DNA of 64,000 bases, taken from NCBI GenBank assembly GCA_963778795.1, contig CAVZVU010000001.1, positions 1,452,776-1,516,775 of the forward strand. Direction: 5' to 3'. Under the pieces are notes generated by a model. It searched no databases. It was not told the origin of the DNA and saw nothing but the letters and a program-made list of their open reading frames with translations. The DNA comes from an uncultured Pseudomonadota bacterium. Its GTDB lineage: Bacteria; Myxococcota_A; Polyangia; Fen-1088. The position numbers and the translations under genes are program-made. Below, one piece after another: positions 6,582 through 50,345 of the stretch (position 1 is its first letter; every line of letters starts with the position of its first letter).

Positions 6582-7817
6582 TCATGGCCGCCCGACGATC
6601 TGAATTCCGTTGACCGGCGCCCGGTGGAGCGGTGTGTTCGACGAGAAGCCGGGAAAAGCAGTAAGCGTGAATGCGCTGCCGCGAAGGCTCCGAAAAACCA
6701 CGTAGTTGCCGGCGCCGCCCGTTGCTTGCACGTAGGTGCCGGCGAAGCGCTGGGTTGTGCTCTGAACCTCGCGCACGGTCGAGGCGCCGATTGTGTAGTT
6801 GAATGCACGGATCTGATCTCCGCCCGGGGTGAAAAATGCGCTGGCGTAGACGTAGACGTCGTAGCCGTTGCTGGTGACGGCGCTCGGTAGCCCGCTCACG
6901 CTCACCGTCGCTGTCTGTCCGTTAGTGGGGTCGAGGTAGCCGTTCATCATTCGAAAATCGCCCGGCGTATCGGGCAAGCCGATCGCGAAGACGTTCGCGC
7001 TCCGGGGCCCGCGCCATTCGATCGCCGCCGTGGTCGTCGCGCCGTCAGCGTCGACCAGGTTGGCGAGCGCGCCGGCGCCGCGCGCGGCGCTGTTCCAGTG
7101 GGCCCGGCGCACCACGCCCGCGGCTTCGGCCGGCGCCATCGGCGTGCCGGTGCCGACGAAGTCGACGCTGATCACTCTCGGTGCTGCGCCCGTGATTGTG
7201 ACGCCGCCCGTTCCGGATGAGCCGCCGGTCGCGGTGGTGGCGCCGCCCGCTCCGGATGAGCCGCCGGTCCCGGTGGTGGCGCCGCCCGCTCCGGTCGAGG
7301 TCGAGGCCGAGCCGCCGGCGCCGCCCGGCGCGCCCGCGTCGGTGCCGTTTGCGCCGCCGCCGGCGCCGCGGCCGCCGCCAGCACCGCCGACGCCACTCGC
7401 CCCGCCGTCGCTGCCGGGCGATGCGCCGAGCGTGAGCCGAACCGAGACCTGGCGGTCGAGCTCGACGTCGACGTCGACGCTGTCGGTCGAGACAATCTTG
7501 CCGGCGATCAGACCGTCGGCGCGGATGCGCAGCCGATCGAAGTCTTGGTTGGGATAGATGACCAGCGTCCCCAGCAGCTCACCGCTCGGCGCCGGAACCC
7601 GCTCCGTGCTCGAGCTGAGCAGCGGCCCGGCCGTCGTGCCGTCGGGCGATCCGTCGCGCGCGAGGCCGAAGATCTCGATCGTCACCTGCTGCGGCACCGC
7701 CGCCTGCGGCGCGTTGGAGACCTCGAGGTAGATGCTGGTCGCGACGTTGCTCTCGCACGCGCCCAGCACCAGCGCCGCGCCAAACAGAATCGACGCCGCC
7801 TGCGTTCCAGATTTCAT
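6582..7817 (-). CDS. secreted lipoprotein with Gly/Ser/Thr-rich linker and C-terminal beta-rich, possibly carbohydrate-binding, domain
   Basis: Signal peptide plus lipobox MKSGTQAASILFGAALVLGAC. Gly-rich linker containing a 39-nt direct repeat (about 7203-7280). The C-terminal domain ends ..APVNGIQIVGRP. ATG at 7817 is preferred over the ORF-track start at 7853. Confidence 0.75.
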   Translation of the reverse strand: MKSGTQAASILFGAALVLGACESNVATSIYLEVSNAPQAAVPQQVTIEIFGLARDGSPDGTTAGPLLSSSTERVPAPSGELLGTLVIYPNQDFDRLRIRADGLIAGKIVSTDSVDVDVELDRQVSVRLTLGASPGSDGGASGVGGAGGGRGAGGGANGTDAGAPGGAGGSASTSTGAGGATTGTGGSSGAGGATTATGGSSGTGGVTITGAAPRVISVDFVGTGTPMAPAEAAGVVRRAHWNSAARGAGALANLVDADGATTTAAIEWRGPRSANVFAIGLPDTPGDFRMMNGYLDPTNGQTATVSVSGLPSAVTSNGYDVYVYASAFFTPGGDQIRAFNYTIGASTVREVQSTTQRFAGTYVQATGGAGNYVVFRSLRGSAFTLTAFPGFSSNTPLHRAPVNGIQIVGRP

Positions 7818-7878: not shown

Positions 7879-8016
7879 ACCGCCGAAACGCGCCGTCGAT
7901 CAGTGTCAACCGACTGCGTCGGGTAGTGTCAACCGACTGCGTCGGGCAGTGTCAACCGACTGCGTCGGGCGGCGTCAACCGACGGCGTCGATCAGCGTCA
8001 ATCGCGGTCGGCGCGG
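7879..8016. repeat. tandem array of a 23-nt unit (about 5 copies), each unit containing CCGAC-N3-GTCGG
   Basis: Units at 7902-7924, 7925-7947 and 7948-7970 are near identical (AGTGTCAACCGACTGCGTCGGGY). Degenerate units at 7971-7993 and 7994-8016, with a remnant at 7879-7901. Intergenic, upstream of the lipoprotein gene. Confidence 0.85.
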
Positions 8017-11896: not shown

Positions 11897-12115
11897 TCAA
11901 AGCGGGGCGGGGACCGACGAGGGCGCGGGTCCTGTCACGGGGTGGGGTCCTCCCCGCTGCGGTCAGATGGCGGGAGCAGCCTGGCTTGTTGTGGCAACTC
12001 CCGATCGCCATTCATCGGAATCGGTCGCGCAGGGCACGACACGCCGCCATCTGACCGCATCGGGGTCCCCCCCACCCCGGGCCACCCGCGCCCTCATCGG
12101 TCCCCGCTCTCAATG
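11897..12115. repeat. long-hairpin repeat element, copy A (about 70-nt self-complementary arms around a ~70-nt core)
   Basis: For example 11959-11973 GCGGTCAGATGGCGG pairs perfectly with 12044-12058 CCGCCATCTGACCGC, and the outer arms pair as well. The core at 11972-12047 is shared with copy B in the opposite orientation. Confidence 0.8.
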
Positions 12116-12167
12116 AGAGAGCTCTCGGCTCGTCCGACGCGGGATCGTTCCCATGTGTCGCAAGCGA

Positions 12168-12380
12168 TCTCGTTGAGAGCACCGAGAAGCGAAGGGCGCG
12201 GGTGACCGGAGTGGGGGGACCCAAATGGGAGCGGACCGCGGCGTGTCGTGCCTTGCGCGACCGATTCCGATGAGCGGTGTTCGGGGGTTGCCACAACAAG
12301 CCAGGCTGCTCCCGCGGTCCGATCCCATTTGGGAGGACCCACGCAGGGCAGGACCCGCGCCCTTTGCTTCTCGGTGCCCC
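12168..12380. repeat. long-hairpin repeat element, copy B (inverted relative to copy A)
   Basis: 12223-12241 pairs with 12311-12329 (1 mismatch). Core blocks 12287-12313, 12254-12273 and 12238-12250 are exact reverse complements of 11972-11998, 12012-12031 and 12035-12047. Confidence 0.8.
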
Positions 12381-15379: not shown

Positions 15380-18067
15380 CTAGGTCTTCCGCTTCGCGGC
15401 GAGCGCCTTGCCGTGGCCGCCGGCCTTCTTCGGCCAGCTCCTCGTCGGCGATCTTCTTGAAGGTCTCGAACGGGTAGGCGCCCGAGATCTTGCGGCCGTT
15501 GATGAACACCGCCGGCGTGCCGTTGACGCCGACGGCCTGGCCTTCCTTGGTCTCCGACTCGATCACGCTCTTGTACTTGCTGCTGTCGAGGTCGGCCTTG
15601 AACTTGGCCATGTTGAGGCCCAGCTCCTGCGCGTACTTCTCCAGGCTGGGGCGGTCGAGCGCGGTGTTGTTCTCGAACAGCTTGTCGTGCATCTCCCAGA
15701 ACTTCCCCTGCGCGTCCGCCGCCATCGCCGCCTCGGCCGCCGGCTCGGCGTTGTTGTGGAAGGGGAGCGGGTAGTTCTTCCAGACCATGCCGGACCTTGC
15801 CGCCGTACTCCTTCTCGATCTGCGCCAGCGTCGGCTCGACGCGCTTGCAGAACGGGCACTGGAAGTCGGAGAAGATGACCATGGTCAGCGGCGCGTTCTT
15901 CGGCCCCTTGGCCGGCGAGTCGCCCGCCTCGACCTTGTAGATGGTCTTGTCCTGCTCGGGCGTCTTCTCGGCCTCGGCCGCCGCCTGGCCGCGCCGGCGC
16001 CGCCGGCACCTCGGTCTTCGCGTCCTTCATGATGACGTCGTAGACCTTGGCCTTGGGCGTCCCCTTGGCGACCAGCGCCTCGGCGCTCTTGAGCTCCTCG
16101 TCGATCTTGGCCTTGAACGCCTCGAACGGCTGCGCGCCCGACAGGAACTTGCCGTTGATGAAGAAGGCCGGCGTGCCGCGCGCGCCGATCTTGCCACCGG
16201 CCGCCGCGTCGGCCTCGATCTCGGCCTTGCCCTTCTGCGCGTCGAGCGCCGCCTTGAACTTGCCCATGTTGAGGCCCAGCTCCTGCGCGTACTTCTCGTA
16301 GGTCGGGCGGTCCATGGTCTGCTGGTTGGCGAAGATCTTGTCGTGCATCTCCCAGAACTTCCCCTGCTCGCCGGCGGCGCGCGCCGCGATGGCGGCCGGC
16401 ATGGCGTTGGGGTGGAAGGGCAGCGGCAGGTCGCGCCAGGCGACGCGGACCTTGCCCTTGTACTCGTCCATCACCTTGTTGATGGTCGGCTCGACGCGCG
16501 AGCAGAACGGGCACTGGAAGTCGGAGAACTGCACGATGGTGACCAGCGCGTCCTTGGCGCCCTTGATCGGCGCGCCCTTGACCTCGGCCCGGAAGACCGT
16601 GGCCGCGTCGGGCTCACCCTGGCGCGCCGGCGCGGGCGGCGGCGGCGGCCGCCTTGGTCGAGGCCGGCCTTGGTCAGCTCGGCGTAGAGCTGGCCGCGCG
16701 ACGTGCCGCTCTTCAGCTTCTCGTCGGCCTTCTTGATCTCCTCGTCGATGACGCCCTTGAACGCCTCGAGCGGCTGCGCGCCGCGGAAGTTGCGCCCGTT
16801 GATGAAGAAGTTGGGCGTGCCGCGCGCGCCGAAGTTGGCGGCGTCGTCCATGTCCTTCTTGATGCGGTCCTTGTACTTCTCGGTGTCGAGCGACGGCCTT
16901 GAACTTGCCCATGTCGAGGCCGATCTCCTGCGCGTACTTCTCGAGGTTCGGGCGATCGAGCGCGCCCTGGTTGGCGAACAGCTTGTCGTGCATCTGCCAG
17001 AACTTGCCCTGCTCGCGCGCCGCCTCGGCCGCCTCGGCGGCGATCATGGCGTTGTTGTGGAAGGGCAGCGGGTTGTGGCGGAAGGCGAGCTGGACGTCGT
17101 TGCCGTAGTCCTTCAGCACCGGCTCGAGCGTCGGCGACGACGCGGCCGCAGAACGGGCACTGGAAGTCGGAGAACTCGACGATGGTGACCTTCGGCTGCT
17201 TGCCGCCCTTGGTCGGCGCGTCGCCGACGGCGACCTTGTAGACCTCGGCGCCGGCGCCCGGGCCCTTGGCGGGCGGCTGGTTCGGCGCGGCCGCGGCCGG
17301 CGACGGCGCGGTCTTGGCGCCCGCCATGAACGTCGCGTAGAGCTGGCCCGGCGGCGTGCCGCGCGCGAGCATCTTGTCGGCGCGCGCGATCTCGTCGTCG
17401 ATCACCTTCTTGAACTCTTCGTACGGCATGCGCGCCCGCGATCTGGCGGCCGTTGATGAAGAAGTTCGGCGTCCCCTGCACGCCGATCTGGCGCGCCAGC
17501 GCCAGGTCGGCGTCGATGCGCGCCTTGCCTGCGCGAGCTGTCGAGCGCCGCCTTGAACTTGCCCATGTCGAGGCCCAGCTCGCCCGCGTACTTCTCGAGG
17601 TCGGGGCGCTTGATGTTCTGCTGGTTGGCGAACATCTTGTCGTGCATCTCCCAGAACTTCCCCTGCGCCTCGGCCGCCAGCGCCGCCTCGGCCGCGAGCG
17701 GCGCGTCGGGGTGGAAGGGCAGCGGGTTGTGGCGGAAGTACGATCCGGACCTGCGTCGGGTACTCCTTCATGATCTTGTCGAGCGTCGGGACGACGCGGC
17801 TGCAGAACGGACACTGGAAGTCGGAGAAGGCGACGATGTTGACCTTCGCGGTCGCCGGGCCGCGCGCCGGTCCCTCGAGCGGGACGCGGAACCGCTCGAC
17901 GTCGCCGACGGCCGGATCGACCGGACGCCCTTCGCGACCGCTGCCATCTCGGTACCGGCAGACTTTTCCTTGTTGCTGCTGCTTCCATCTTTGTTCGCGA
18001 TCTTGGCGAGACCGTAGGATCCGCCGGCGACCACGACCAACAAAACGATGACCGTGCCTTTGTTCAT
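15380..18067 (-). pseudogene. exported protein with four tandem DsbA-like thioredoxin-fold domains (frame-disrupted, about 9 frame changes)
   Basis: Signal anchor MNKGTVIVLLVVVAGG. There are four modules of ~217 aa, each with FSDFQCPFC..RV and GTP.FFINGR. The string GCAGAACGG(G/A)CACTGGAAGTCGGAGAA recurs at 15847, 16502, 17148 and 17802. The linkers have no stop once frames are reconciled. Confidence 0.8.
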
Positions 18068-18883: not shown

Positions 18884-18992
18884 CGAGGGGTCGGGACCCC
18901 TAGTGGGGTTCCCATCGCGTGGGCGTAGCTTGGCTTGCCAAGCGGAGCCCTTCGCGGGAGGGTTTGGGAACCCTCCGAGGGTTCCCATCTTG
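18884..18992 (+). repeat. REP-like structured repeat: one full copy (18914-18990) preceded by a partial copy; same family as the repeat inside the kinase gene at 39910-40071
   Basis: About 80% identity to the 81-nt unit over ~75 nt. Hairpins GCTTGG-CTTG-CCAAGC and GGGAACCC-N5-GGGTTCCC. Confidence 0.75.
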
Positions 18993-20151: not shown

Positions 20152-20224
20152 TGCCCAGGGACAGAGTCGAACTGTCTACACATGGATTTTCAGTCCATTG
20201 CTCTACCAGTTGAGCTACCTGGGC
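20152..20224 (-). tRNA. tRNA-Phe (anticodon GAA)
   Basis: Cloverleaf read by hand: acceptor GCCCAGG/CCTGGGC, D arm GCTC-AACTGGTA-GAGC, anticodon stem ATGGA/TCCAT with loop CTGAAAA, T arm GACAG-TTCGACT-CTGTC, discriminator A. CCA is not encoded. Confidence 0.95.
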
Positions 20225-37957: not shown

Positions 37958-39330
<1,373 letters not shown>

Positions 39331-39334
<4 letters not shown>

Positions 39335-40956
39335 GCGCGCGGTCCCAAGGCAGGGGCCGCCGCCGCGGGGCGCGCCAAGGTGAGCTCGAAGCGGGTCACG
39401 TCTCCCTCGCGAGCGTAGATCACGTCGCCCCCGTGCGCACGGGCGATCGCGCGCGAGATCGCCAGGCCGAGCCCGGTCCCCTCGGGCTTGGTGGTGAAGA
39501 ACGGCTCGAACAGCTCGCCGACCCGCGCCGCCGGGACGCCGCCGCCGGCGTCCTGCACCCGCACGCGCACCGCGGCGCCGTCGTCGTACACCGTCGCTGC
39601 GACGGTGCCGCCGTCGGGCGAGGCCTCGATGGCGTTGCGCAGCAGGTTGTCGAGCGCGCGCGCCATGGCGTCGACGTCGGCGGGCAGCGACCCGCTGCCG
39701 CCCGCGGTCCGGATGGTCACGCCGCGCAGCGCGCTCCAGGGGGCCAGCGCCTCGACGCGCGTGCGCAACAGCGCCCCGACGTCGGTCTGGTGGCGCGGAC
39801 CGAGCGCGCGCCCCGACACGATCAATAGATCCGCGACCAGCCGGTCGAGCCGGGTGATCTCCGACGACGCGTGCGCGATCGCCTGGACCACCGCCGGCGG
39901 TAGAGGATCGGCGCGTGGACGGAGCTCGGCTTGCCGAGCGGAGTCCGTCGCGGGAGGGTCCGGGAACCCGCCCAGGGTTCCCGGTTGAATGGCGCGTGGA
40001 CGGAGCTCGGCTTGCCGAGCGGAGTCCGTCGCGGGAGGGTCCGGGAACCCTTCCAGGGTTCCCGGTTGAAACGCGTATGTAGGCGTATCGCCGGCTATCG
40101 CCAGATCGAGGCGCAGCTTGATCGACGCCAGCGGGTTGCGCACCTCGTGCGCGACGCCGGCCACCACCCGCCCGAGCGCGACCAGCCGCTCTTGCTGAGC
40201 CAGGTCGCGCCCGAGGCGCTCCTGGATCTCGCGCGCCTCGGCCAGGCGCCGCGCCAGGGTCGCGATCCCGTCGGCGATCGCGCTCAGCTCGCGCACGGGG
40301 GGGCGCGGCACCGGCGTCGACAGATCGGTGGCCAGCGCGCCCAGCGCGCTCTGGATCCCGCCGGCGCCGCGCTTGAACATGGTCAGCGCGCGCGCGGCGC
40401 TGGCGACCAGCAACAGCGCCGACAGCGTGAGCGCCCCGACGAGCAGCCGCCAGCTCTGCGAGTAGGGCGACGGCTTGATCGCGACTGCGACCCATGCCAA
40501 CCGCGGGCTGGTGCCGGCGGCGCTGGGGGTGCGCGCGACGCTCTGGGCCCCCTGGGCGACCCCGACCGGTTCGATTCGCCCCACCAGCACCGCACCCGCG
40601 AGCGGCGACTCGACGTCGACGGCTTGGTGCTCGGCCAGCGCGCGCGCCGCCGCCGCCGCCAGCGGCGGTCGCCAGTCGAGCGGCGCGCGCCCGCCCACCG
40701 CCTCGGGGTGCGCGGCGATCCCCCCGCGCATGCCGATCATCGCCGGCGCGGCCCCGTCGGGCTCGTCCTGGCTGGAGCCCAGCAGGGTTGCCATCTCTTC
40801 GCCGGCCGCCTCGTGGGCCCGCTCCAGGCGCTGCGCCATGCTGAAGGCGATGATCCGGTAGAGGGCCGCGGCCGACAGCACGGCGGTGAAGATCCCCAGG
40901 ATGGCGACGGTCGTCATCCCATGCCCGATCCGCCGCGGTAGCTTCATCACGGACAC
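39331..40956 (-). CDS. sensor histidine kinase (two TM segments, periplasmic loop, HisKA + HATPase_c) carrying a 54-aa repeat insertion in the DHp loop
   Basis: H box HEVRNPLASI, N box DNLLRNAIEA, G1 VQDAGGGV, G2 GTGLGLAIS. TM segments TTVAILGIFTAVLSAAALY and LLVGALTLSALLLVASAA. The start is GTG at 40956 or ATG at 40947. Confidence 0.9.
39910..40071 (+). repeat. two tandem 81-nt REP-like units embedded in-frame in the histidine kinase CDS
   Basis: Units 39910-39990 and 39991-40071 are near identical and homologous to the intergenic copy at 18914-18990. Confidence 0.9.
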
Positions 40957-42591: not shown

Positions 42592-44036
42592 ACACGAAGA
42601 GCCGAGCCGATCGTCGCCTGGAACATTCACATCCGCCCGAGAACCGCGCCGGCGATCCGCCTGCCGAGCGCGCGCCCGAGCGCCCGCAAGGCGTCGCCCG
42701 CGAACCGGTGCAGGGAGACGGCGTCGACGGCGACGTCCCGCCGGTGCCGGCCGCGCGCACGAGGCCGTTCGTCTGGACGGTTGTTGTGCTGATCGCGCTG
42801 GCGCTGGGCGCGGCGTTCGTCATGCATCAGCGCAGCCAGGCCAAGGTCGCCCCGGGCGCGGCGGCGGCGGGCGCCGACGGCGAGCGCGCCTCGTCGCGCG
42901 GTGGGCGCAACGCCGGCGCCGCCGGCGGGGCCGACCGCGTCGTCCCGGTGCTGGTCTCGACGGTCACGCGGCGCGACGTTCCGATCACCGTCGAGGGGCT
43001 GGGCAGCGTCATCGCGTTCAAGACGGTGAACATCCGCACCCAGGTCGACGGGCGGCTCGATCGCGTGGTCTTCAGCGAAGGGCAGGCGGTGAAGAAGGGC
43101 GATCTGCTGGCCCAGGTCGACAGCCGTCCGTTCACCATCCAGCTGCACCAGGCCGAGGCGGCGCTGGCGCGCGACCAGGCGCAGCTGCAGGGGGCAGAGC
43201 TGAACCTCAAGCGCTACGAGGCGGTGGTGGCCCAGCGCCTGATCCCGCAACAACAGGTCGACGATCAGCGCGCGCTGACCGAGCAGCTGAAGGGCACGGT
43301 TCAGTCGGACCAGGCCCAGATCGAGAACGCGCGCCTGCAGCTGGTCTACGCGCGCATCACCTCGCCGATCGACGGCGTGACCGGCGATCCGTCAGGTCGA
43401 CGCCGGCAACCTGGTGCACGCCGCCGACGCCAACGGCATCGTCGTGGTCACCCAGCTCGATCCGATCGCGATCATCTTCACGCTGCCGCAGGACGAGCTG
43501 CCGCGCGTGGTGCAGAGCCAGGCCGGCGGCCCGCCCGATGGTCGAGGCGCTGAGCCGCGACGGCGACCGCGCGCTGGGCACCGGCACGCTGACGCTGGTC
43601 GACAACCAGATCAACCAGAACACCGCGACCATTCGGCTGAAGGCGGTCTTCCCCAATCCGGCGCACACGCTGTGGCCCAACCAGTTCGTGAAGACCCGCC
43701 TGCGGCTGGAATGCAGCAAGGGGGCGCTGGTGGTTCCGGCGGCCGCGGTCCAGCGCGGCCCGCAGGGGACGTTCGTCTACGTGGTCGGCGAAGACGGCAA
43801 GGCCGCCGTCAAGCCGATCCAGATCGACACCATCGAGGGCGCGACGGCGCTGCTCACGGGCGGGGTCGAGACCGGCGATCGGGTGGTGACCGAAGGACAG
43901 AATCAGCTGCGTCCCGGCGCGCGCGTCAGCGTGCGCCAGCCGGGCAACCGAGAGGCGCGCCGGCCACGCGGGTGCCGCGGGCGGGGCGGCCCCTGGTGGC
44001 GGCGGCAAGCACGCGGGATCGAAGCGACCGAAATGA
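42588..44036 (+). pseudogene. mdtA: RND efflux periplasmic adaptor (membrane fusion protein), MdtA-like (about 3 frame changes)
   Basis: TM anchor FVWTVVVLIALALGAAFV, lipoyl/hairpin motifs VKKGDLLAQVDSRPF and YARITSPIDGVTG, beta-barrel region. Frame changes near 43385, 43535 and 43960. Its stop overlaps the mdtB ATG (ATGA). Confidence 0.85.
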
Positions 44037-47000
44037 ACGTCTCCGAGCCGTTCATCCGCCGCCCGATCGGCACGTCGCTGCTGATGGTCGGCGTGCTGAT
44101 CGCCGGCGCGGTCGGCTATCGCCAGCTGCCGGTCGCGGCGCTGCCGCAGGTCGACTACCCGACGATCGCGGTCACCACGTTGCTGCCCGGCGCCAGCGCC
44201 GAGACCATGGTGTCGGCGGTGACCACGCCGCTCGAGCGGCAGCTGGGGCAGATCCCGTCGCTGGCGCAGCTGACCTCGGTCAGCAGCGCGGCGACGTCGC
44301 TGATCACGCTGCAGTTCACGCTCGACCGCGACATCGACGCCGCCGAGCAGGACGTGCAGGCGGCGATCAACGCGGCGTCGAACCTGCTGCCGCGCACGCT
44401 GCCGACGCCGCCGACCTACAGCAAGAGCAACCCCGCCGACGTGCCGGTGATCGCGCTCGGCGTCAGCTCCGACACCGCGCCGCTCGAGCGCGTCGACGAC
44501 TACGCCGATTCGATCCTGGCGCAGAAGATCTCGCAGGTCAGCGGCGTCGGCCTGGTCACGCTGAACGGCGGCCAGCGGCCCGCGGTGCGCGTGCAGGTCG
44601 ATCCGGTCGCGCTCGCGGGGCGCGGCCTCAGCCTGGAGGACGTGCGCGCGGTCCTGGTCGCCGCCAACGTCAACCAGCCCAAGGGCAACCTCGACGGCCC
44701 GCGCCTCAACTACACCATCGCCGCCAACGATCAGCTGCAGCAGGCCGCCGGCCTACCGGCCGCTGGTGGTCGCCTACCGCAACGGCGCGCCGATCCGGCT
44801 GTCCGACGTGGCGCAGGTGCTCGACGGCGTCGAGAACTCGCAGCTGGCCGGCTGGGCCAACGGCCACCGCGCCGTGATCCTGAACGTGCAGCGCCAGCCG
44901 GGCGCCAACCTGATCCAGGTCGCCGATCACGTCAAGGCGCTGCTGGCCGCAGCTGGAGACGTCGCTGCCGCAGGGGATCAAGATCGAGATCCTCAGCGAC
45001 CGCACCGACACCGTGCGCGCGTCGGTCGACGACGTGCAGTTCACGCTGCTCCTGACCATCGTGCTGGTGGTCGCGGTGATCTACCTGTTCCTGCGCAGCG
45101 TGCGCGCCACCATCATCCCGGGCGTCGCGGTGCCGCTGTCGCTGGTCGGCGACCTTCGGCGTGATGGCGCTGCTCGGCTACAGCCTCAACAACCTGACGC
45201 TGATGGCGCTGACCATCTCGACCGGCTTCGTCGTCGACGACGCCATCGTCATGATCGAGAACATCGCGCGCTACATCGAGCAGGGCGACAAGCCGCTGGA
45301 CGCGGCGCTCAAGGGGTCGAAGCAGATCGGCTTCACGATCATCTCGCTGACGGTGTCGCTGGTCGCGGTGCTGATCCCGCTGCTGTTCATGGGCGGCGTG
45401 ATCGGGCGGCTGTTCCGCGAGTTCGCGGTGACGCTGAGCACGGCGATCGTCGCGTCGGCGCTGATCTCGCTGACGCTGACGGCGATGATGTGCGCTCACA
45501 TCCTGCGTCCGGTGCATCCCGGGGACGAGAGCGCGATCGCGCGCGGCGCCGAGCGGGTCTTCAGCTGGATGGTCAAGGTCTACGACCGCGGCCTGGTCTG
45601 GGTGCTCGCGCACCGCAAGACCACGATGGTCGCGACCCTGGCGACGGTGCTGCTCACCGTGGTGCTGGCGGTGGTGACGCCCAAGGGGTTGTTCCCGCAG
45701 CAGGACACCGGCATGCTGCTCGGCGTCACCGAGGCCGCCGCCCGACGTCTCGTTCGCGACGATGGCCGAGCGGCAGCGCGCCGTCGCCGACGTGGTCATG
45801 GGCGATCCCGACGTCGACACCGTGGCGTCGTTCATCGGCGCCGACGGCACCAACCCGACGCTGAACACCGGGCGGCTGTCGATCCGCCTCAAGCCGCGCG
45901 CCGACCGCCAGGCCAGCGCGCAGCAGATCATGGATCGCCTGTCGCCGCGGCTGGCCGACGGTCGGCGGCATCGTCGTCTACCTGCAGGCGGTGCAGGATC
46001 TGCAGATCGAGAGCCGCACCAGCCGCACCCAGTACCAGTACACGCTGGAGGACGCCGACCCCGCCGAGCTGACGCGCCTGGGCGCCGCGCGTGCTCGAGC
46101 GGCTGCGCGAGCTGCCCGAGCTGGCCGACGTCGCCAGCGATCAGCAGGAGGGGGCGCGCTTCGCTGTCGCTGGTCGATCGATCGCGACACGGCGTCGCGC
46201 CTGGGCGTCACCGTCGCAGATGATCGACGACACGCTGTACGACGCCTTCGGCCAGCGCCAGGTCTCGACGATCTTCACCCAGCTCAACCTGTACCGCGTG
46301 ATCCTCGAGGTCGCGCCGGCCTTCCAGCAGGGCCCGGACGCGCTGTCGCAGATCTTCCTGCGCTCGGCCAGCGGCGAGTCGGTGCCGCTGAGCGCCGTTC
46401 GCCCACTACGAGCGCGATCCAGGGCGCGCTGTCGATCGCGCACCAGGGGCAGTTCCCGGCGGTCACGCTGTCGTTCAACCTGGCGCGCGGCGTCGTCGCT
46501 GGGCGACGCGGTCGAGGCGGTCGGCGCGCGGTGGCCGAGCTCGGCGCGCCGCCCGGGTTGCACGGCGACTTCCAGGGCGCGGCGCGCGGCGTTCGGCGAG
46601 TCGCTGTCGAGCGAGCCGCTGCTGATCCTGGCGGCGATCGTCACCGTCTACATCGTGCTCGGCGTGCTCTACGAGAGCTACATCCACCCGATCACGATCC
46701 TGTCGACGCTGCCGTCGGCCGGCGTCGGCGCGCTGCTGGCGCTGCTGCTGTGCCGGCTCGGAGCTGTCGGTGATCGCGCTCATCGGCATCATCCTGCTGA
46801 TCGGCATCGTCAAGAAGAACGCCATCATGATGATCGACTTCGCGCTCGAGGCCGAGCGCGACCGGGACCTGATCGCCGCGCGAGGCGATCCACGAGGCCT
46901 GCCTGCTGCGCTTCCGCCCCATCATGATGACCACGATGGCGGCGCTGCTGGGCGGGCTGCCGCTGGCGCTGGGGCAGCGGGACCGGCTCCGAGCTGCGCC

Positions 47001-47191
47001 GGCCGCTCGGCATCTCGATCGTCGGCGGCCTGCTGGTGTCGCAGCTGCTGACGCTGTACACGACGCCGGTGATCTACCTGTACATGGAGCGGCTCGGCGC
47101 GCTGGATGAAGGGCATCGGCGCGCGGCGCGCCGCCCGCGGCCAGGCGATCGCCGGCGCGGGCGCGGCGCGGGTCAGCCGGAGACGCCGTGA
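44033..47191 (+). pseudogene. mdtB: RND multidrug efflux permease, MdtB-like (about 17 frame changes, 11 of them after 46085)
   Basis: Colinear with E. coli MdtB as I recall it: ..FIRRPIGTSLLMVG.., [84 protein letters not shown]. Its stop overlaps the mdtC GTG (GTGA). Confidence 0.9.
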
Positions 47192-50100
47192 ACATCTCCG
47201 CGCCGTTCATCCGGCGCCCGATCGCGACGTCGCTGCTGGCGGCGGCGCTGCTGCTGGCGGGGCTGGCCGCGTTCACCCAGCTGCCGGTCGCGCCGCTGCC
47301 GCGGTCGACTTTCCCGACCATCCAGGTGTCGGCGCGCGCTGCCGGGCGCCAGCCCGACGACCATGGCGTCGGCGGTGGCGACGCCGCTCGAGCGCCGCTT
47401 CGGCCGCATCGCCGGCCTGACCGAGATGACCTCGGCCAGCGCGCTCGGCTCGACGACGATCACGCTGCAGTTCGATCTCGACCGCGACGTCGACCGCGGC
47501 GGCGCGCGACGTCCAGGCGGCGATCAACGCCGCCGGCGGCGAGCTGCCGTCGAACCTGCCGACCCGCCCGAACTACCGCAAGGTCAACCCGGCCGACTCG
47601 CCGATCCTGATCCTGTCGCTGACCTCGGACACGCTGCCGCTGGCGCAGGTGTTCGACGCCGCGAACAGCATCCTCGCGCAGAAGATCTCGCAGCTGCGAC
47701 GGCGTCGGCCAGGTGTTCGTCGGCGGCGGGCAGCAGCCGGCGGTGCGCGTGCAGGTCGACGCGCAGCGCGCTGGCCGGCATGGGCCTCGGCCTCGAGGAC
47801 GTGCGCGCCGCGCTGGCGCGTCGACCGCCAACCAGCCCAAGGGCTCGATCGCCCAGCGACGGCGTCAGCTACGCGCTGTCGGCCAACGACCAGCTGTTGG
47901 GCGCCGACGCCTACCGCAGTCTGATCGATCGCGTACGCCGAACGGCGCCGGCGTGCGCCTGGGCGACGTCGCCAAGGTCTTCGACGACGTCGAGAACAAC
48001 CGGCTGGCCGCCTGGATCGACGGCAAGCGCGCCGTGCTGATGATCATCCGGCGCGCAGCCGGGCGCGAACATCCTCGAGACGATCGAGCGCATCAAGGCG
48101 GCGCTGCCGCGGCTGACCGCAGTCGATCTCGCCCGCGATCGAGCTCGAGATCGCGCTCGATCGCACCGAGACGATCCGCGCGTCGGTGCGCGACGTCGAG
48201 CTGACCCTGGTCCTGAGCGTGCTGCTGGTGACCGGCGTGGTCTTTCTGTTCCTGCGCAGCGCCGGGCGCGACCGCGATCCCGAGCGTCGCCGTGCCGCTG
48301 TCGCTGGTCGGCACGTTCGGCGTGATGTACCTGCTCGACTACAGCCTCGACAACCTGTCGCTGATGGCGCTGACGATCTCGACCGGGTTCGTCGTCGACG
48401 ACGCCATCGTCGTCACCGAGAACATCGCCCGCCACATCGAGGCCGGGCGCCGACCGCTCGCAGGCGGCGCTGCGAGGGCGCCAAGCAGATCGGCTTCACG
48501 ATCGTGTCGATCACGGCGTCGCTGATCGCGGTGTTCATCCCGATCCTGTTCATGGGCGGCATCGTCGGGCCGCCTGTTCCGCGAGTTCGCGGTGACGCTG
48601 GCGATCGCGATCGCGATCTCGGCGCTGGTGTCGCTGACGCTGACGCCGATGATGGCGGCGCGCCTGCTGCGACCGGCGGCCGCAGCCGACGAGCACGGAG
48701 GCGCTGCCCGCGCGAGCCGAGCGCGTCTTCGAGCGCGCTCGTGCGCGGCTACGAGCGCGCGCTCGGCTGGGTGCTCGACCACCCGCGCCTGATGCTGCTG
48801 GTGACGGCGGCGACGCTGGGGCTGACGATCTTGCTGGCGATCAAGATGCCGAAGGGGCTGTTCCCGCAGCAGGACACCGGTCTGCTGGCCGGCTTCACCG
48901 AGGCGTCGCAGGACATCTCGTCGTCGGCGATGCAGCGAGCGGCAGCAGCGCGCGTCAACGCCATCGTGCTGCGCCGACCCCGACGTGGCGCACGTGGTGT
49001 CGTTCGTCGGCAGCGCCAACGGCTCGACCGGGAACACCGGCACGGTCTTCGTCGCGCTCAAGCCCTACAGCCAGCGCAAGGCGACGGCCGACGAGATCGT
49101 CGGCGCGCCTGCGCCCCAAGCTGGCGCAGATCCCGGGCGTGACGCTGTTCCTGCAGGCGACGCAGGACCTGCGCGTCGGCGGCCGCGGCTCGCGCACCCA
49201 GTACCAGTACACGCTGGAGGACGCCGATCTCGACGAGCTGCAGCAGCTGGGCGCCGCGCATCTTCGACCGCCTGCGCACGCTGCCCGAGCTGCGCGACGT
49301 CGCCACCGATCAGCAGACCGCCGGGCTGCAAGTGTCGCGTCGTGGTCGACCGCGACAGCGCCGCGCGCCTGGGCGTCACCCCGCAGGCGATCGACGACAC
49401 CTGTACGACGCCTTCGGGCAGCGCCAGGTCGCGACCTCGTTCACCGCGACGAACTACTACCGCGTCGTGCTGGAGGCGACGCCCGCGATGCTGAGCGGGC
49501 CCGACCAGCTGTCGCAGATCTACGTGCGCAGCGCGCTCGGCGGCGTGGTGCCGCTGTCGGCGATCGCGCGCTTCGAGATCGGGCCGGCGCCGCTGTCGAT
49601 CACCCACCAGGGGCAGTTCCCGGCGATGACGATCTCGTTCAACCTGGCGCCCGACAAGTCGCTGGGCCAGGCGGTGCAGGCGATCCAGGCGGCGCTGCGC
49701 GCAGATCGGCATGCCGGCCAGCGTGCGCGCCGGCTTCAAGGGGACGGCGCAGGCGTTCACGCGCGTCGCTCGACAGCGAGCCGTGGCTGATCCTGATGGC
49801 GCTGCTGGTGGTCTACGTCGTGCTGGGGATCCTGTACGAGAGCCTGATCCACCCGCTGACGATCCTGTCGACGCTGCCGTCGGCGGCGCTGGGGGCGCTG
49901 GTCGCGCTGTGGCTGTTCAAGCTCGACTTCAGCATCATCGCCCTCATCGGCGTCGTGCTGCTGCTGGGCATCGTCAAGAAGAACGCCATCATGATGATCG
50001 ACTTCGCGCTCGAGGCCGAGCGCGCCGAGAACCTCGACCCCAAGGAGGCGATCCGCCGCGCCTGCCTGATGCGCTTCCGGCCGATCCTGATGACCACGCT

Positions 50101-50345
50101 GGCGGCGCTGTTCGGCGCGCGTGCCGCTGGCCGTCGGGCTCGGCGCCGGCTCGGAGCTGCGGCGGCCGCTGGGGGTCAGCATCGTCGGCGGGCTCTGCCT
50201 GTCGCAGCTGCTGAACCTGTTCACGACGCCGGTGATCTACCTGACGCTGGATCGCCTGCGGGGGCGGCGCGCCGGGCGGGTCGCCGAGCGCCGGCGCCGC
50301 CACCTGTCGGGGTCGAGTCTGTCACCCCAGGCGGGGTCGTCATAG
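47188..50345 (+). pseudogene. mdtC: RND multidrug efflux permease, MdtC-like (about 20 frame changes)
   Basis: [17 protein letters not shown].., [69 protein letters not shown] and [18 protein letters not shown] are found piecewise in all three frames. Confidence 0.9.

Follow-up and report, generated by a model that had tools for sequence, protein, structure and literature searches.

The subject of this study is a 64-kb stretch of DNA from an uncultured bacterium of the Polyangia, referred to here as the window, and a structured repeat that it carries inside a gene for a sensor histidine kinase. The kinase gene has gained two tandem units of this dispersed, structurally constrained repeat, and the gain is specific to the lineage of the window. 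What is conserved in the repeat family is a nucleic-acid structure on one strand, and no peptide. The insert is very probably a non-autonomous mobile repeat, resembling the repetitive extragenic palindromes (REPs) and the Rickettsia palindromic elements (RPEs), that survives in a tolerant loop of the kinase. The family is previously undescribed: no Rfam match to the repeat was found at gathering thresholds over the whole window, the insert gave only noise at E<=10, and a literature search for a myxobacterial REP or MITE (for miniature inverted-repeat transposable element) family matching the repeat found none. It is filed here as a REP/RPE-like mosaic repeat of uncultured Polyangia.

Insertion into the kinase gene

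The kinase coding sequence (CDS; 39331..40956, minus strand) encodes a ZraS-like protein with HisKA and HATPase_c domains, as identified from its open reading frame (ORF), Pfam, the orthologues and the ZraS structure. It is the longest ORF, 541 amino acids (aa), and is read through both repeat units; the orthologues suggest a start at 40947. An earlier note on this DNA had described two 27-aa copies in frame within the minus-strand CDS, and the 541-aa ORF bears this out. The same note had stated that the units have no stop in the kinase frame. This is true, but in this DNA of 70% GC five frames out of six run through the array uninterrupted, so a stop-free frame is nearly automatic and counts as weak evidence. 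The meaningful property of the insert is its length, a multiple of three.

The 162-nt insert lies in the hairpin loop of the dimerization and histidine phosphotransfer (DHp) domain, between the H-box helix (DHp helix 1) and DHp helix 2. This is the position originally proposed for it, and the orthologue alignment, Pfam, the best solved relative and an AlphaFold model all place it there. The Pfam HisKA match covers profile positions 2-27 of 66 and ends where the insert starts, and HATPase_c is matched too. The best solved relative, ZraS (9jfj, E=3e-30), aligns in two blocks that flank the insert. The AlphaFold model, of low overall confidence (mean predicted local distance difference test score, pLDDT, 62), has a helix at residues 222-288, pLDDT below 50 for 290-348 and a further helix at 354-380. 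The 54 extra residues are rich in proline, glycine and charged residues and are predicted to be disordered. The loop at the tip of the DHp hairpin is thought to set whether autophosphorylation proceeds in cis or in trans.

None of the 13 orthologues aligned with the window protein carries the 54-residue insert. All other listed homologues are 347-529 aa long, against 541 aa for the window ORF, and are therefore too short to hold both the insert and a full-length kinase. The closest orthologue (L119, 93.5% nucleotide identity) has a clean empty site, and the window is exactly 162 nt longer. On the coding strand this orthologue reads ...CAGTATGC|CAGCCCG..., and the window reads ...ACATACGC(162 nt)CGATCCT.... 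In this comparison there is no target duplication beyond a 3-nt GCG ambiguity. The lineage specificity for which the earlier note had proposed a check is confirmed by these results. The sequence of the DHp loop varies among the orthologues, and in one of them (P0005) 19 unrelated residues, FEAAAGGNGSAALAHRASS, are inserted there (alignment A1, columns 410-427), which indicates that the loop accepts insertions. The Ka/Ks between the window gene and its closest orthologue is 0.16. The kinase gene therefore looks functional, and its product probably still works with the insert in place.

The codons around the insert were also found to be unusual. In the 12 codons to either side, the closest orthologue and the window allele show a synonymous divergence that is raised about fivefold (Ks 0.84 vs 0.15), and the window allele has unusual A/T-ending codons (ATA, GAT, CCT, ACA, CTA) at 39304-39909 and 40072-40110. 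Extra inserted DNA was considered as the cause of this divergence and set aside for lack of proof; variation in this loop is seen in all the orthologues. Metagenome scans for kinase alleles with 0, 1, 2 or 3 units, using a lineage-specific 30-mer and an H-box-region 35-mer, gave no matches.

Repeat units and hairpins in the window

The two units occupy 39910..39990 (unit 1) and 39991..40071 (unit 2) on the plus strand, antisense to the kinase mRNA. Tandem Repeats Finder (TRF) detects them as one strong array spanning 39910-40070 (score 308, with a period of 81, 2.0 copies and 97% matches), and a covariance model recognizes each unit (73 bits, E=4e-13 for unit 1; 88.8 bits, E=2.5e-16 for unit 2). 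Compared directly, the units differ at three sites: unit positions 61 and 62, both of which fall in the loop of hairpin 2, and position 81. The description of two 81-nt tandem units with few differences was therefore correct. On the minus strand, unit 1 encodes AFQPGTLEGFPDPPATDSARQAELRPR and unit 2 encodes AIQPGTLGGFPDPPATDSARQAELRPR.

It is quite improbable that misassembly produced the duplication or the entire insert, or that the kinase gene has recently become a pseudogene. Assemblies are prone to error in repeats, and another gene of the family's carriers, with six copies (L039), appears to be frameshifted downstream. Nevertheless, units that differ at three positions are not what simply collapsing or expanding a repeat would give, arrays with 2-6 tandem units are present in independent assemblies, and the kinase has an intact ORF with both domains and the low Ka/Ks given above.

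Each unit can form two hairpins. Hairpin 1 of unit 1 (39912..39952, plus strand) is built of three stems, CGCG/CGCG on the outside, GGAC/GTCC in the middle and GCTCGG(C)/(G)CCGAGC on the inside; it folds with z about -3.8 by RNAfold and by DNA folding, and the family covaries in the same columns. Hairpin 2 of unit 1 (39960..39984, plus strand) reads CCGGGAACCC-GCCCA-GGGTTCCCGG and is identified by motif, covariance model and folding. The equivalent hairpins of unit 2 lie at 39993-40033 and 40041-40065 on the same strand.

A full copy is also present in intergenic DNA at 18914..18990 (plus strand, covariance model 85.7 bits), with hairpin 1 at 18916-18956 and hairpin 2 at 18965-18987. No ORF with coding-like codon-position GC was found around it. 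The earlier note had reported this copy on the same strand in non-coding DNA, and in this it was right; the identity, given there as about 80%, is 85.9% over 71 nt (blastn, 18916-18986, E=2e-19). The partial copy reported at 18884-18913 exists as a hairpin-2-only element at 18893..18913 (plus strand, motif match with 1 mismatch), which directly adjoins the intergenic copy on its 5' side. Elsewhere, 9 of 77 single copies likewise have a leftover hairpin 2, placed 2-8 nt ahead of CGCG. In total the window holds 3 full copies, and the motif GGGAACCC-N5-GGGTTCCC occurs 4 times against 0.03 expected from shuffles. The coding and intergenic copies differ by the compensatory changes that had been described, GCTCGG/CCGAGC vs GCTTGG/CCAAGC and GGAC/GTCC vs GGGC/GCCC, and both can be read directly in the sequence.

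Distribution and make-up of the family

The repeat was sought with the pattern GGGTNNGGGAACCCNNNNNGGGTTCCC, a 20-base core, in one genome per species and in blocks of 8 kb. The core pattern matched at least 118 eight-kb loci in about 48 assemblies, of which at least 116 loci, in about 46 species of metagenome-assembled genomes (MAGs), belong to Polyangia/Myxococcota. The matched assemblies are Polyangia, Myxococcales or 'delta proteobacterium' MAGs from fens, soils and groundwater, apart from two chance matches in Methylomirabilota and Rokubacteria that involve the hairpin-2-like palindrome only. The repeat is thus dispersed, as the earlier note had claimed, and has further copies. With nhmmer, a profile search of the carrier DNA (0.93 Mb in all, the window plus 119 loci) gave 138 arrays that contain 165 copies.

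The consensus of 98 distinct aligned copies is (A)TCGCGTGGGGAGCC...GCTTTGC...GCGGACCATCGCGGGAGGGTTTGGGAACCCTCCCAGGGTTCCCATNTCAATYG. A unit is about 77-90 nt long and comprises a long hairpin 1 with interruptions, then TCGCGGGAGGGT as conserved linker, then the palindrome of hairpin 2 and finally an AT-rich tail of 10 nt. The conserved stretch reaches 10 nt past hairpin 2 and begins about 2-4 nt before CGCG.

A tandem array may contain up to six units. In each of the 16 arrays with more than one copy, the units follow one another head-to-tail on a single strand, and the only reverse-strand matches are the palindromic hairpin 2 itself. The periods of two-copy arrays range from 78 to 90 nt and are not limited to multiples of three. 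The proposal that tandem periods are always a multiple of three because the arrays are coding was rejected, as it is contradicted by these periods and by two larger arrays: one of four 87-nt units between divergent mazG-like and phoH-like genes (L027), and one of six 81-nt units that lies at a hybrid kinase's start or ahead of it (L100).

It is common for a copy to be attached 2-8 nt past a hairpin 2 that was already there, and adjacent copies may come from different subfamilies (L087, L060). The loop of hairpin 1 contains a small nested palindrome, CACCCTGCCCACCCCGCGCGCTTCGCGCGCGCCCTCG, at L092:5215-5271 and L098:3053-3109, and also in L002, L025 and L049, all in one orientation; copies with the nested palindrome in the other orientation are found in L014, L022, L048 and L090. 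The composite so formed has spread in turn and is found in frame in the genes for an S15 peptidase and for indolepyruvate oxidoreductase alpha. The mixed-subfamily neighbours and the nested palindrome indicate repeated insertion events.

Structural conservation

RNAalifold, with the structure extended, folds the 98 distinct copies into two hairpins. Hairpin 1 of the family has an outer CGCG/CGCG stem, a middle stem of 3-5 bp and an inner stem of 7-8 bp, and hairpin 2 is a palindrome of 9-11 bp spanning 21-25 nt. Bases are paired in 90.7% of the cells of the paired columns, vs 36-45% when the partners are slid by 1-3 columns. Cells in which both sides have changed number 257, against 86.5 in shuffles, and none of 500 shuffles reaches the observed value. 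The columns of hairpin 1 lie outside the search pattern, so the covariation there is not a product of ascertainment. Copies found by the profile search only show compensatory changes in hairpin 2 as well (GGGGACCC/GGGTCCCC and GGAAACCC/GGGTTTCC), and the base pair at the foot of hairpin 2 covaries in the family (TA 77, CG 17). Single copies fold with z about -3.8 to -4.9, as RNA or as DNA.

In the paired columns G·U outnumbers A·C by 52 to 6. The structure is therefore kept on one strand, which in the kinase gene is the strand antisense to the mRNA. Folding and family covariation thus support the two hairpins per copy described in the earlier note. Its view that selection acts on the structure of the nucleic acid rather than on the peptide is upheld by the covariation and by the reading of the repeat elsewhere in both orientations and five frames.

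Genomic setting of the copies

Genes around the arrays were called with a simple caller based on codon-position GC. Between co-directional genes, the element is in the sense orientation in 33 arrays and antisense in 32; 14 arrays have convergent and 10 divergent flanks. Inside genes, 10 arrays are sense and 10 antisense. There is no preference of orientation relative to transcription or gene strand. In about a fifth of the arrays (~24), the stop codon of a convergent gene lies inside the tail of the element, at offsets of 2-8 nt. Copies were also observed directly adjoining tRNA genes in L003, L030, L043 and L089; the window itself has a tRNA gene at 20152-20224 on the minus strand (Rfam, 69.8 bits).

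These results bear on the view that the repeat is a functional structured RNA, such as a small RNA, a stabilizer of the 3'-untranslated region or a terminator, and that the copy in the kinase is incidental. The sequence of the linker and hairpin 2 is strongly conserved over about 46 species, G·U is tolerated on one strand, many copies abut the 3' ends of genes, and the copy in a sucD gene described below is more conserved than its flanks. Against an RNA function stand the equal orientations between and within genes and the 10 arrays between divergent genes. Scanning of the kinase site found neither a T-run terminator nor a sigma-70-like promoter, and there is the lack of any Rfam match. As tandem arrays, nesting and presence/absence polymorphism better fit mobile DNA, the RNA explanation is considered unlikely.

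A second comparison of a filled with an empty site is available outside the kinase. In L073 (3319-3398), compared with L096 (7400-7445), an element lies at the boundary between an upstream gene's stop and the mutY start. It has taken the place of the final five codons, the stop and the GTG start, and its reverse complement supplies TGA and ATG codons (CCCAT -> ATGGG). N-terminal extensions made by gene callers were noted at element sites in L008 and L073.

In-frame inserts in other genes

By codon-position GC, 15 of the 138 arrays have coding-like sequence of one and the same ORF to their left and right. Pfam or orthologues support 12 in-frame arrays, about 9% of the total, comprising the window kinase and 11 others. 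The host genes encode a GNAT acetyltransferase (L005), the succinyl-CoA ligase alpha subunit (sucD; L016 and its orthologue L108), a DEAD/DExH helicase (L039), a GAF-PAS-HisKA kinase (L046), a dynamin-family GTPase (L054), a CDP-alcohol phosphatidyltransferase (L066), an M16 peptidase (L069), RimM (L074), an S15 peptidase (L092) and the indolepyruvate oxidoreductase alpha subunit, IorA (L098). In sucD the insert lies between the CoA_binding and Ligase_CoA domains, and in the helicase six 78-nt units stand just before the DEFH box. At least 73% of the bases of the carrier genomes are coding, vs about 9% of arrays that are intragenic, so genes are strongly under-represented as hosts. This is as expected if most intragenic insertions are removed.

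The sucD insert is common to two species representatives (L016:3857-3934 and L108:3436-3513), in which the element is identical at 75 of 78 positions and the flanks are 90% identical. In the helicase, the six 78-nt units (L039:1525-1990) are identical and add 156 aa. The frame of this gene appears to shift about 100 codons downstream, which suggests a pseudogene or a long-read assembly error.

Across the host genes the repeat is translated in both orientations and in five of six frames. The insert peptides, among them QPGTLEGFPDPPA, GNPGRVPVPS, WEPSKGSQTLPRW, REGLGTLPGFP and RGRVWEPSQGSHHG, differ from gene to gene and none is conserved, as follows from this variety of frames. It is highly improbable that the kinase insert is a tandem repeat selected at the protein level, for instance as a docking or linker motif of the kinase. 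The two 27-aa copies are in frame, near-identical, predicted to be disordered and linker-like, which such a motif might be. Yet the orthologues do without them, the same DNA is found in non-coding sequence, other proteins read it in five frames and both orientations, and a search with the 57-aa insert matched only four short unrelated proteins, too few to serve as a census.

Comparison with known repeat families

The name REP-like, used in the earlier note, is apt as a resemblance. REPs allow G·T pairs in their stems, have termini that supply stop codons and are in a minority of cases intragenic and in frame (PMC3733652). Both they and the Polyangia repeat are short GC-rich palindromes of high copy number that are mostly extragenic and occur in clusters or mosaics (PMC3733652). 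Hairpin 2 is a palindrome of REP size, with 165 copies in 0.93 Mb. Membership of the REP family did not stand. The Polyangia unit is a composite of two hairpins and about 80 nt, whereas a REP is a single palindrome of 20-40 nt, and its copies are head-to-tail rather than in inverted pairs (REPINs). A gene for a REP-associated tyrosine transposase (RAYT) was not seen in the 0.93 Mb. The REP tag GTAG/CGTC is not conserved among the 98 copies, and CGTC occurs only as a CATC variant 9-10 nt from hairpin 2.

The possibility that the repeat is a classical REP/RAYT element, or a palindrome-associated element derived from IS200/IS605, is a somewhat doubtful one. On this view, the hairpins would be single-stranded DNA (ssDNA) sites for a Y1 HUH transposase that cuts a few bases from the foot of the hairpin, and insertion would occur without target duplication. 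Several observations agree with this. There are two subterminal hairpins, which are strand-specific and tolerate G·T but not A·C, no terminal inverted repeats and no target duplication at the kinase site. New copies have repeatedly been joined 2-8 nt past an existing hairpin 2, a tail of 10 nt is conserved after it, and the ends of the element give stop codons to neighbouring ORFs, as REPs do (PMC3733652). What speaks against it, besides the head-to-tail order and the lack of a RayT-like ORF, is the absence of the tag, for which there is GNAG before the inner stem of hairpin 1, with GTAG in a minority. The orientation bias of the IS200/IS605 type, linked to replication direction, is absent too: in the 8-kb blocks, where power is low, the GC skew in the orientation of the element is positive in 71 and negative in 66, with a mean of 0.002.

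RPEs are also a match in behaviour, as they insert in frame into unrelated genes (PMC10969869). Both are structured repeats that add a stretch of peptide, in frame, to unrelated housekeeping and metabolic genes at positions compatible with the protein fold, and a mobilizing enzyme has been identified for neither (PMC10969869). The 12 supported in-frame arrays of the Polyangia repeat, the window included, are of this kind. RPEs are about 100-150 bp long, reside in the AT-rich reduced genomes of obligate intracellular alphaproteobacteria and are intragenic in nearly half of cases (PMC10969869). In contrast, the Polyangia repeat has a GC-rich (70%) free-living host and is intragenic in about 9% of arrays, in several frames. 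Homology between the two is not expected, given the different phylum and base composition, and they are likened by behaviour only.

Bacterial and Rhizobium intergenic mosaic elements (BIMEs and RIMEs) are built of REP units in alternating orientation and are essentially extragenic. Compared by description only, they share with the Polyangia repeat two types of palindromic unit, conserved linkers, variable combinations and tandem clusters.

MITEs that form in-frame gene fusions include ERIC, the Coxiella QMITE and others (PMC10969869, PMC5896051). The Polyangia repeat is likewise non-autonomous, small and multi-copy, with occasional in-frame fusions. It also shows presence/absence polymorphism of the MITE type, between the window and L119 and between L073 and L096, and occupies many different host sites. 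It differs in having neither the terminal inverted repeats nor the target-site duplications that define MITEs. Its 5' end, (GAT)CGCGTGG, and its 3' end, CCCATNTCAATYG, are not complementary, and AT is possibly present at both ends of single copies.

The earlier note had called the colonization of a kinase loop by a palindromic repeat unusual. This was overstated, as REPs and RPEs inserted in frame within genes are documented (PMC3733652, PMC10969869) and about 9% of the arrays of the family are in frame.

Proposed origin and spread

A non-autonomous mobile repeat would account for these observations as follows. A dispersed structured repeat may have spread through the genomes of an uncultured Polyangia lineage, and one copy would have inserted antisense to the kinase gene, in the part that encodes the tip of the DHp helical hairpin. 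The second unit may have arisen by duplication, through slippage or unequal exchange, or as a further copy inserted beside the first. The insert would persist through its length of a multiple of three, its stop-free frame and its position in a naturally variable surface loop, where 54 disordered residues need not disturb the four-helix bundle. Mobilization would be in trans and transposition-like, perhaps by an enzyme that recognizes hairpins, with the strand-specific hairpins serving as recognition features of the machinery. An HUH-type hairpin-recognizing enzyme is an attractive candidate for the mobilizer because there is no target duplication, copies join 3' of hairpin 2 and the 10-nt tail is conserved.

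Several points weigh against this proposal. A tblastn search with E. coli RayT over the window and the 119 loci gave a best E of 0.37. Neither terminal inverted repeats nor a clear target-site duplication is seen, and the orientation of the element is linked to neither GC skew nor gene strand, which leaves a lagging-strand ssDNA mechanism unsupported. There are only two comparisons of filled and empty sites, and that of L073 and L096 is not a clean insertion. The scan pattern fixed hairpin 2, so ascertainment accounts in part for its apparent invariance among the copies obtained in this way. The copy number of two rests on one assembly. The functioning of the kinase with its insert is read from the sequence, and the Ka/Ks of 0.16 is not assignable to the window lineage alone. 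It may be added that no transposase was found among the genes between oppositely oriented copies.

There is a small chance that the repeat goes beyond selfish DNA, either as a structured single-strand element with a dedicated partner, which would make it a new mobilization system that has no REP tag, inverted repeats or target duplication, or as a recurrent donor of disordered peptides that selection retains. The greater conservation of the sucD insert than of its flanks, and the six-unit arrays within or beside helicase and kinase genes, point to such retention.

Other features of the window

The kinase gene is followed by that of its partner, a sigma-54-dependent NtrC-type response regulator (37958..39334, minus strand), which was identified from its ORF translation and whose start coordinate is approximate. 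The orthologous locus L121 has the same gene order, with Pfam Response_reg, Sigma54_activat and HTH_8 domains. The kinase is divergent to an efflux operon of OEP, MFP and RND genes, and this arrangement is the same in the orthologous loci.

Other repeats were noted in the window. At 11933-12340 there is an inverted repeat with arms of 128 nt (11945-12072 and 12213-12340) that are 83% complementary and 140 nt apart, together with a shorter nested inverted pair (11933-11973 and 12044-12084). Tandem repeats lie near each other at 7894-8001 and 7198-7294; one has a 23-nt unit, CGTCGGGCAGTGTCAACCGACTG (4.7 copies, 88% matches), and a 39-nt repeat is found near it (2.5 copies, 94% matches). Diverged tandem repeats or tandem paralogues are present at 15436-17870 and 44000-50300. 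They comprise four diverged repeats of about 650 nt on the minus strand, which are paralogous genes or domains, and a pair of tandem paralogues of about 3.16 kb, likely two RND transporter genes adjoining the OEP/MFP genes.

Implications

Structured repeats in coding genes are an already established phenomenon, and one that recurs in this Polyangia family. The RPE style of in-frame protein colonization is thereby extended to large, GC-rich genomes of free-living bacteria, where the host genes include the central sucD and rimM as well as signalling proteins. For genome annotation, the repeat explains odd Pro/Gly-rich inserts of 26-29 residues, spurious N-terminal extensions and shifted stops in Polyangia MAGs. 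The window kinase is a clean natural example of a structured repeat colonizing a signalling protein, and its natural 54-residue insertion at the DHp tip could be used to probe the tolerance of this loop.

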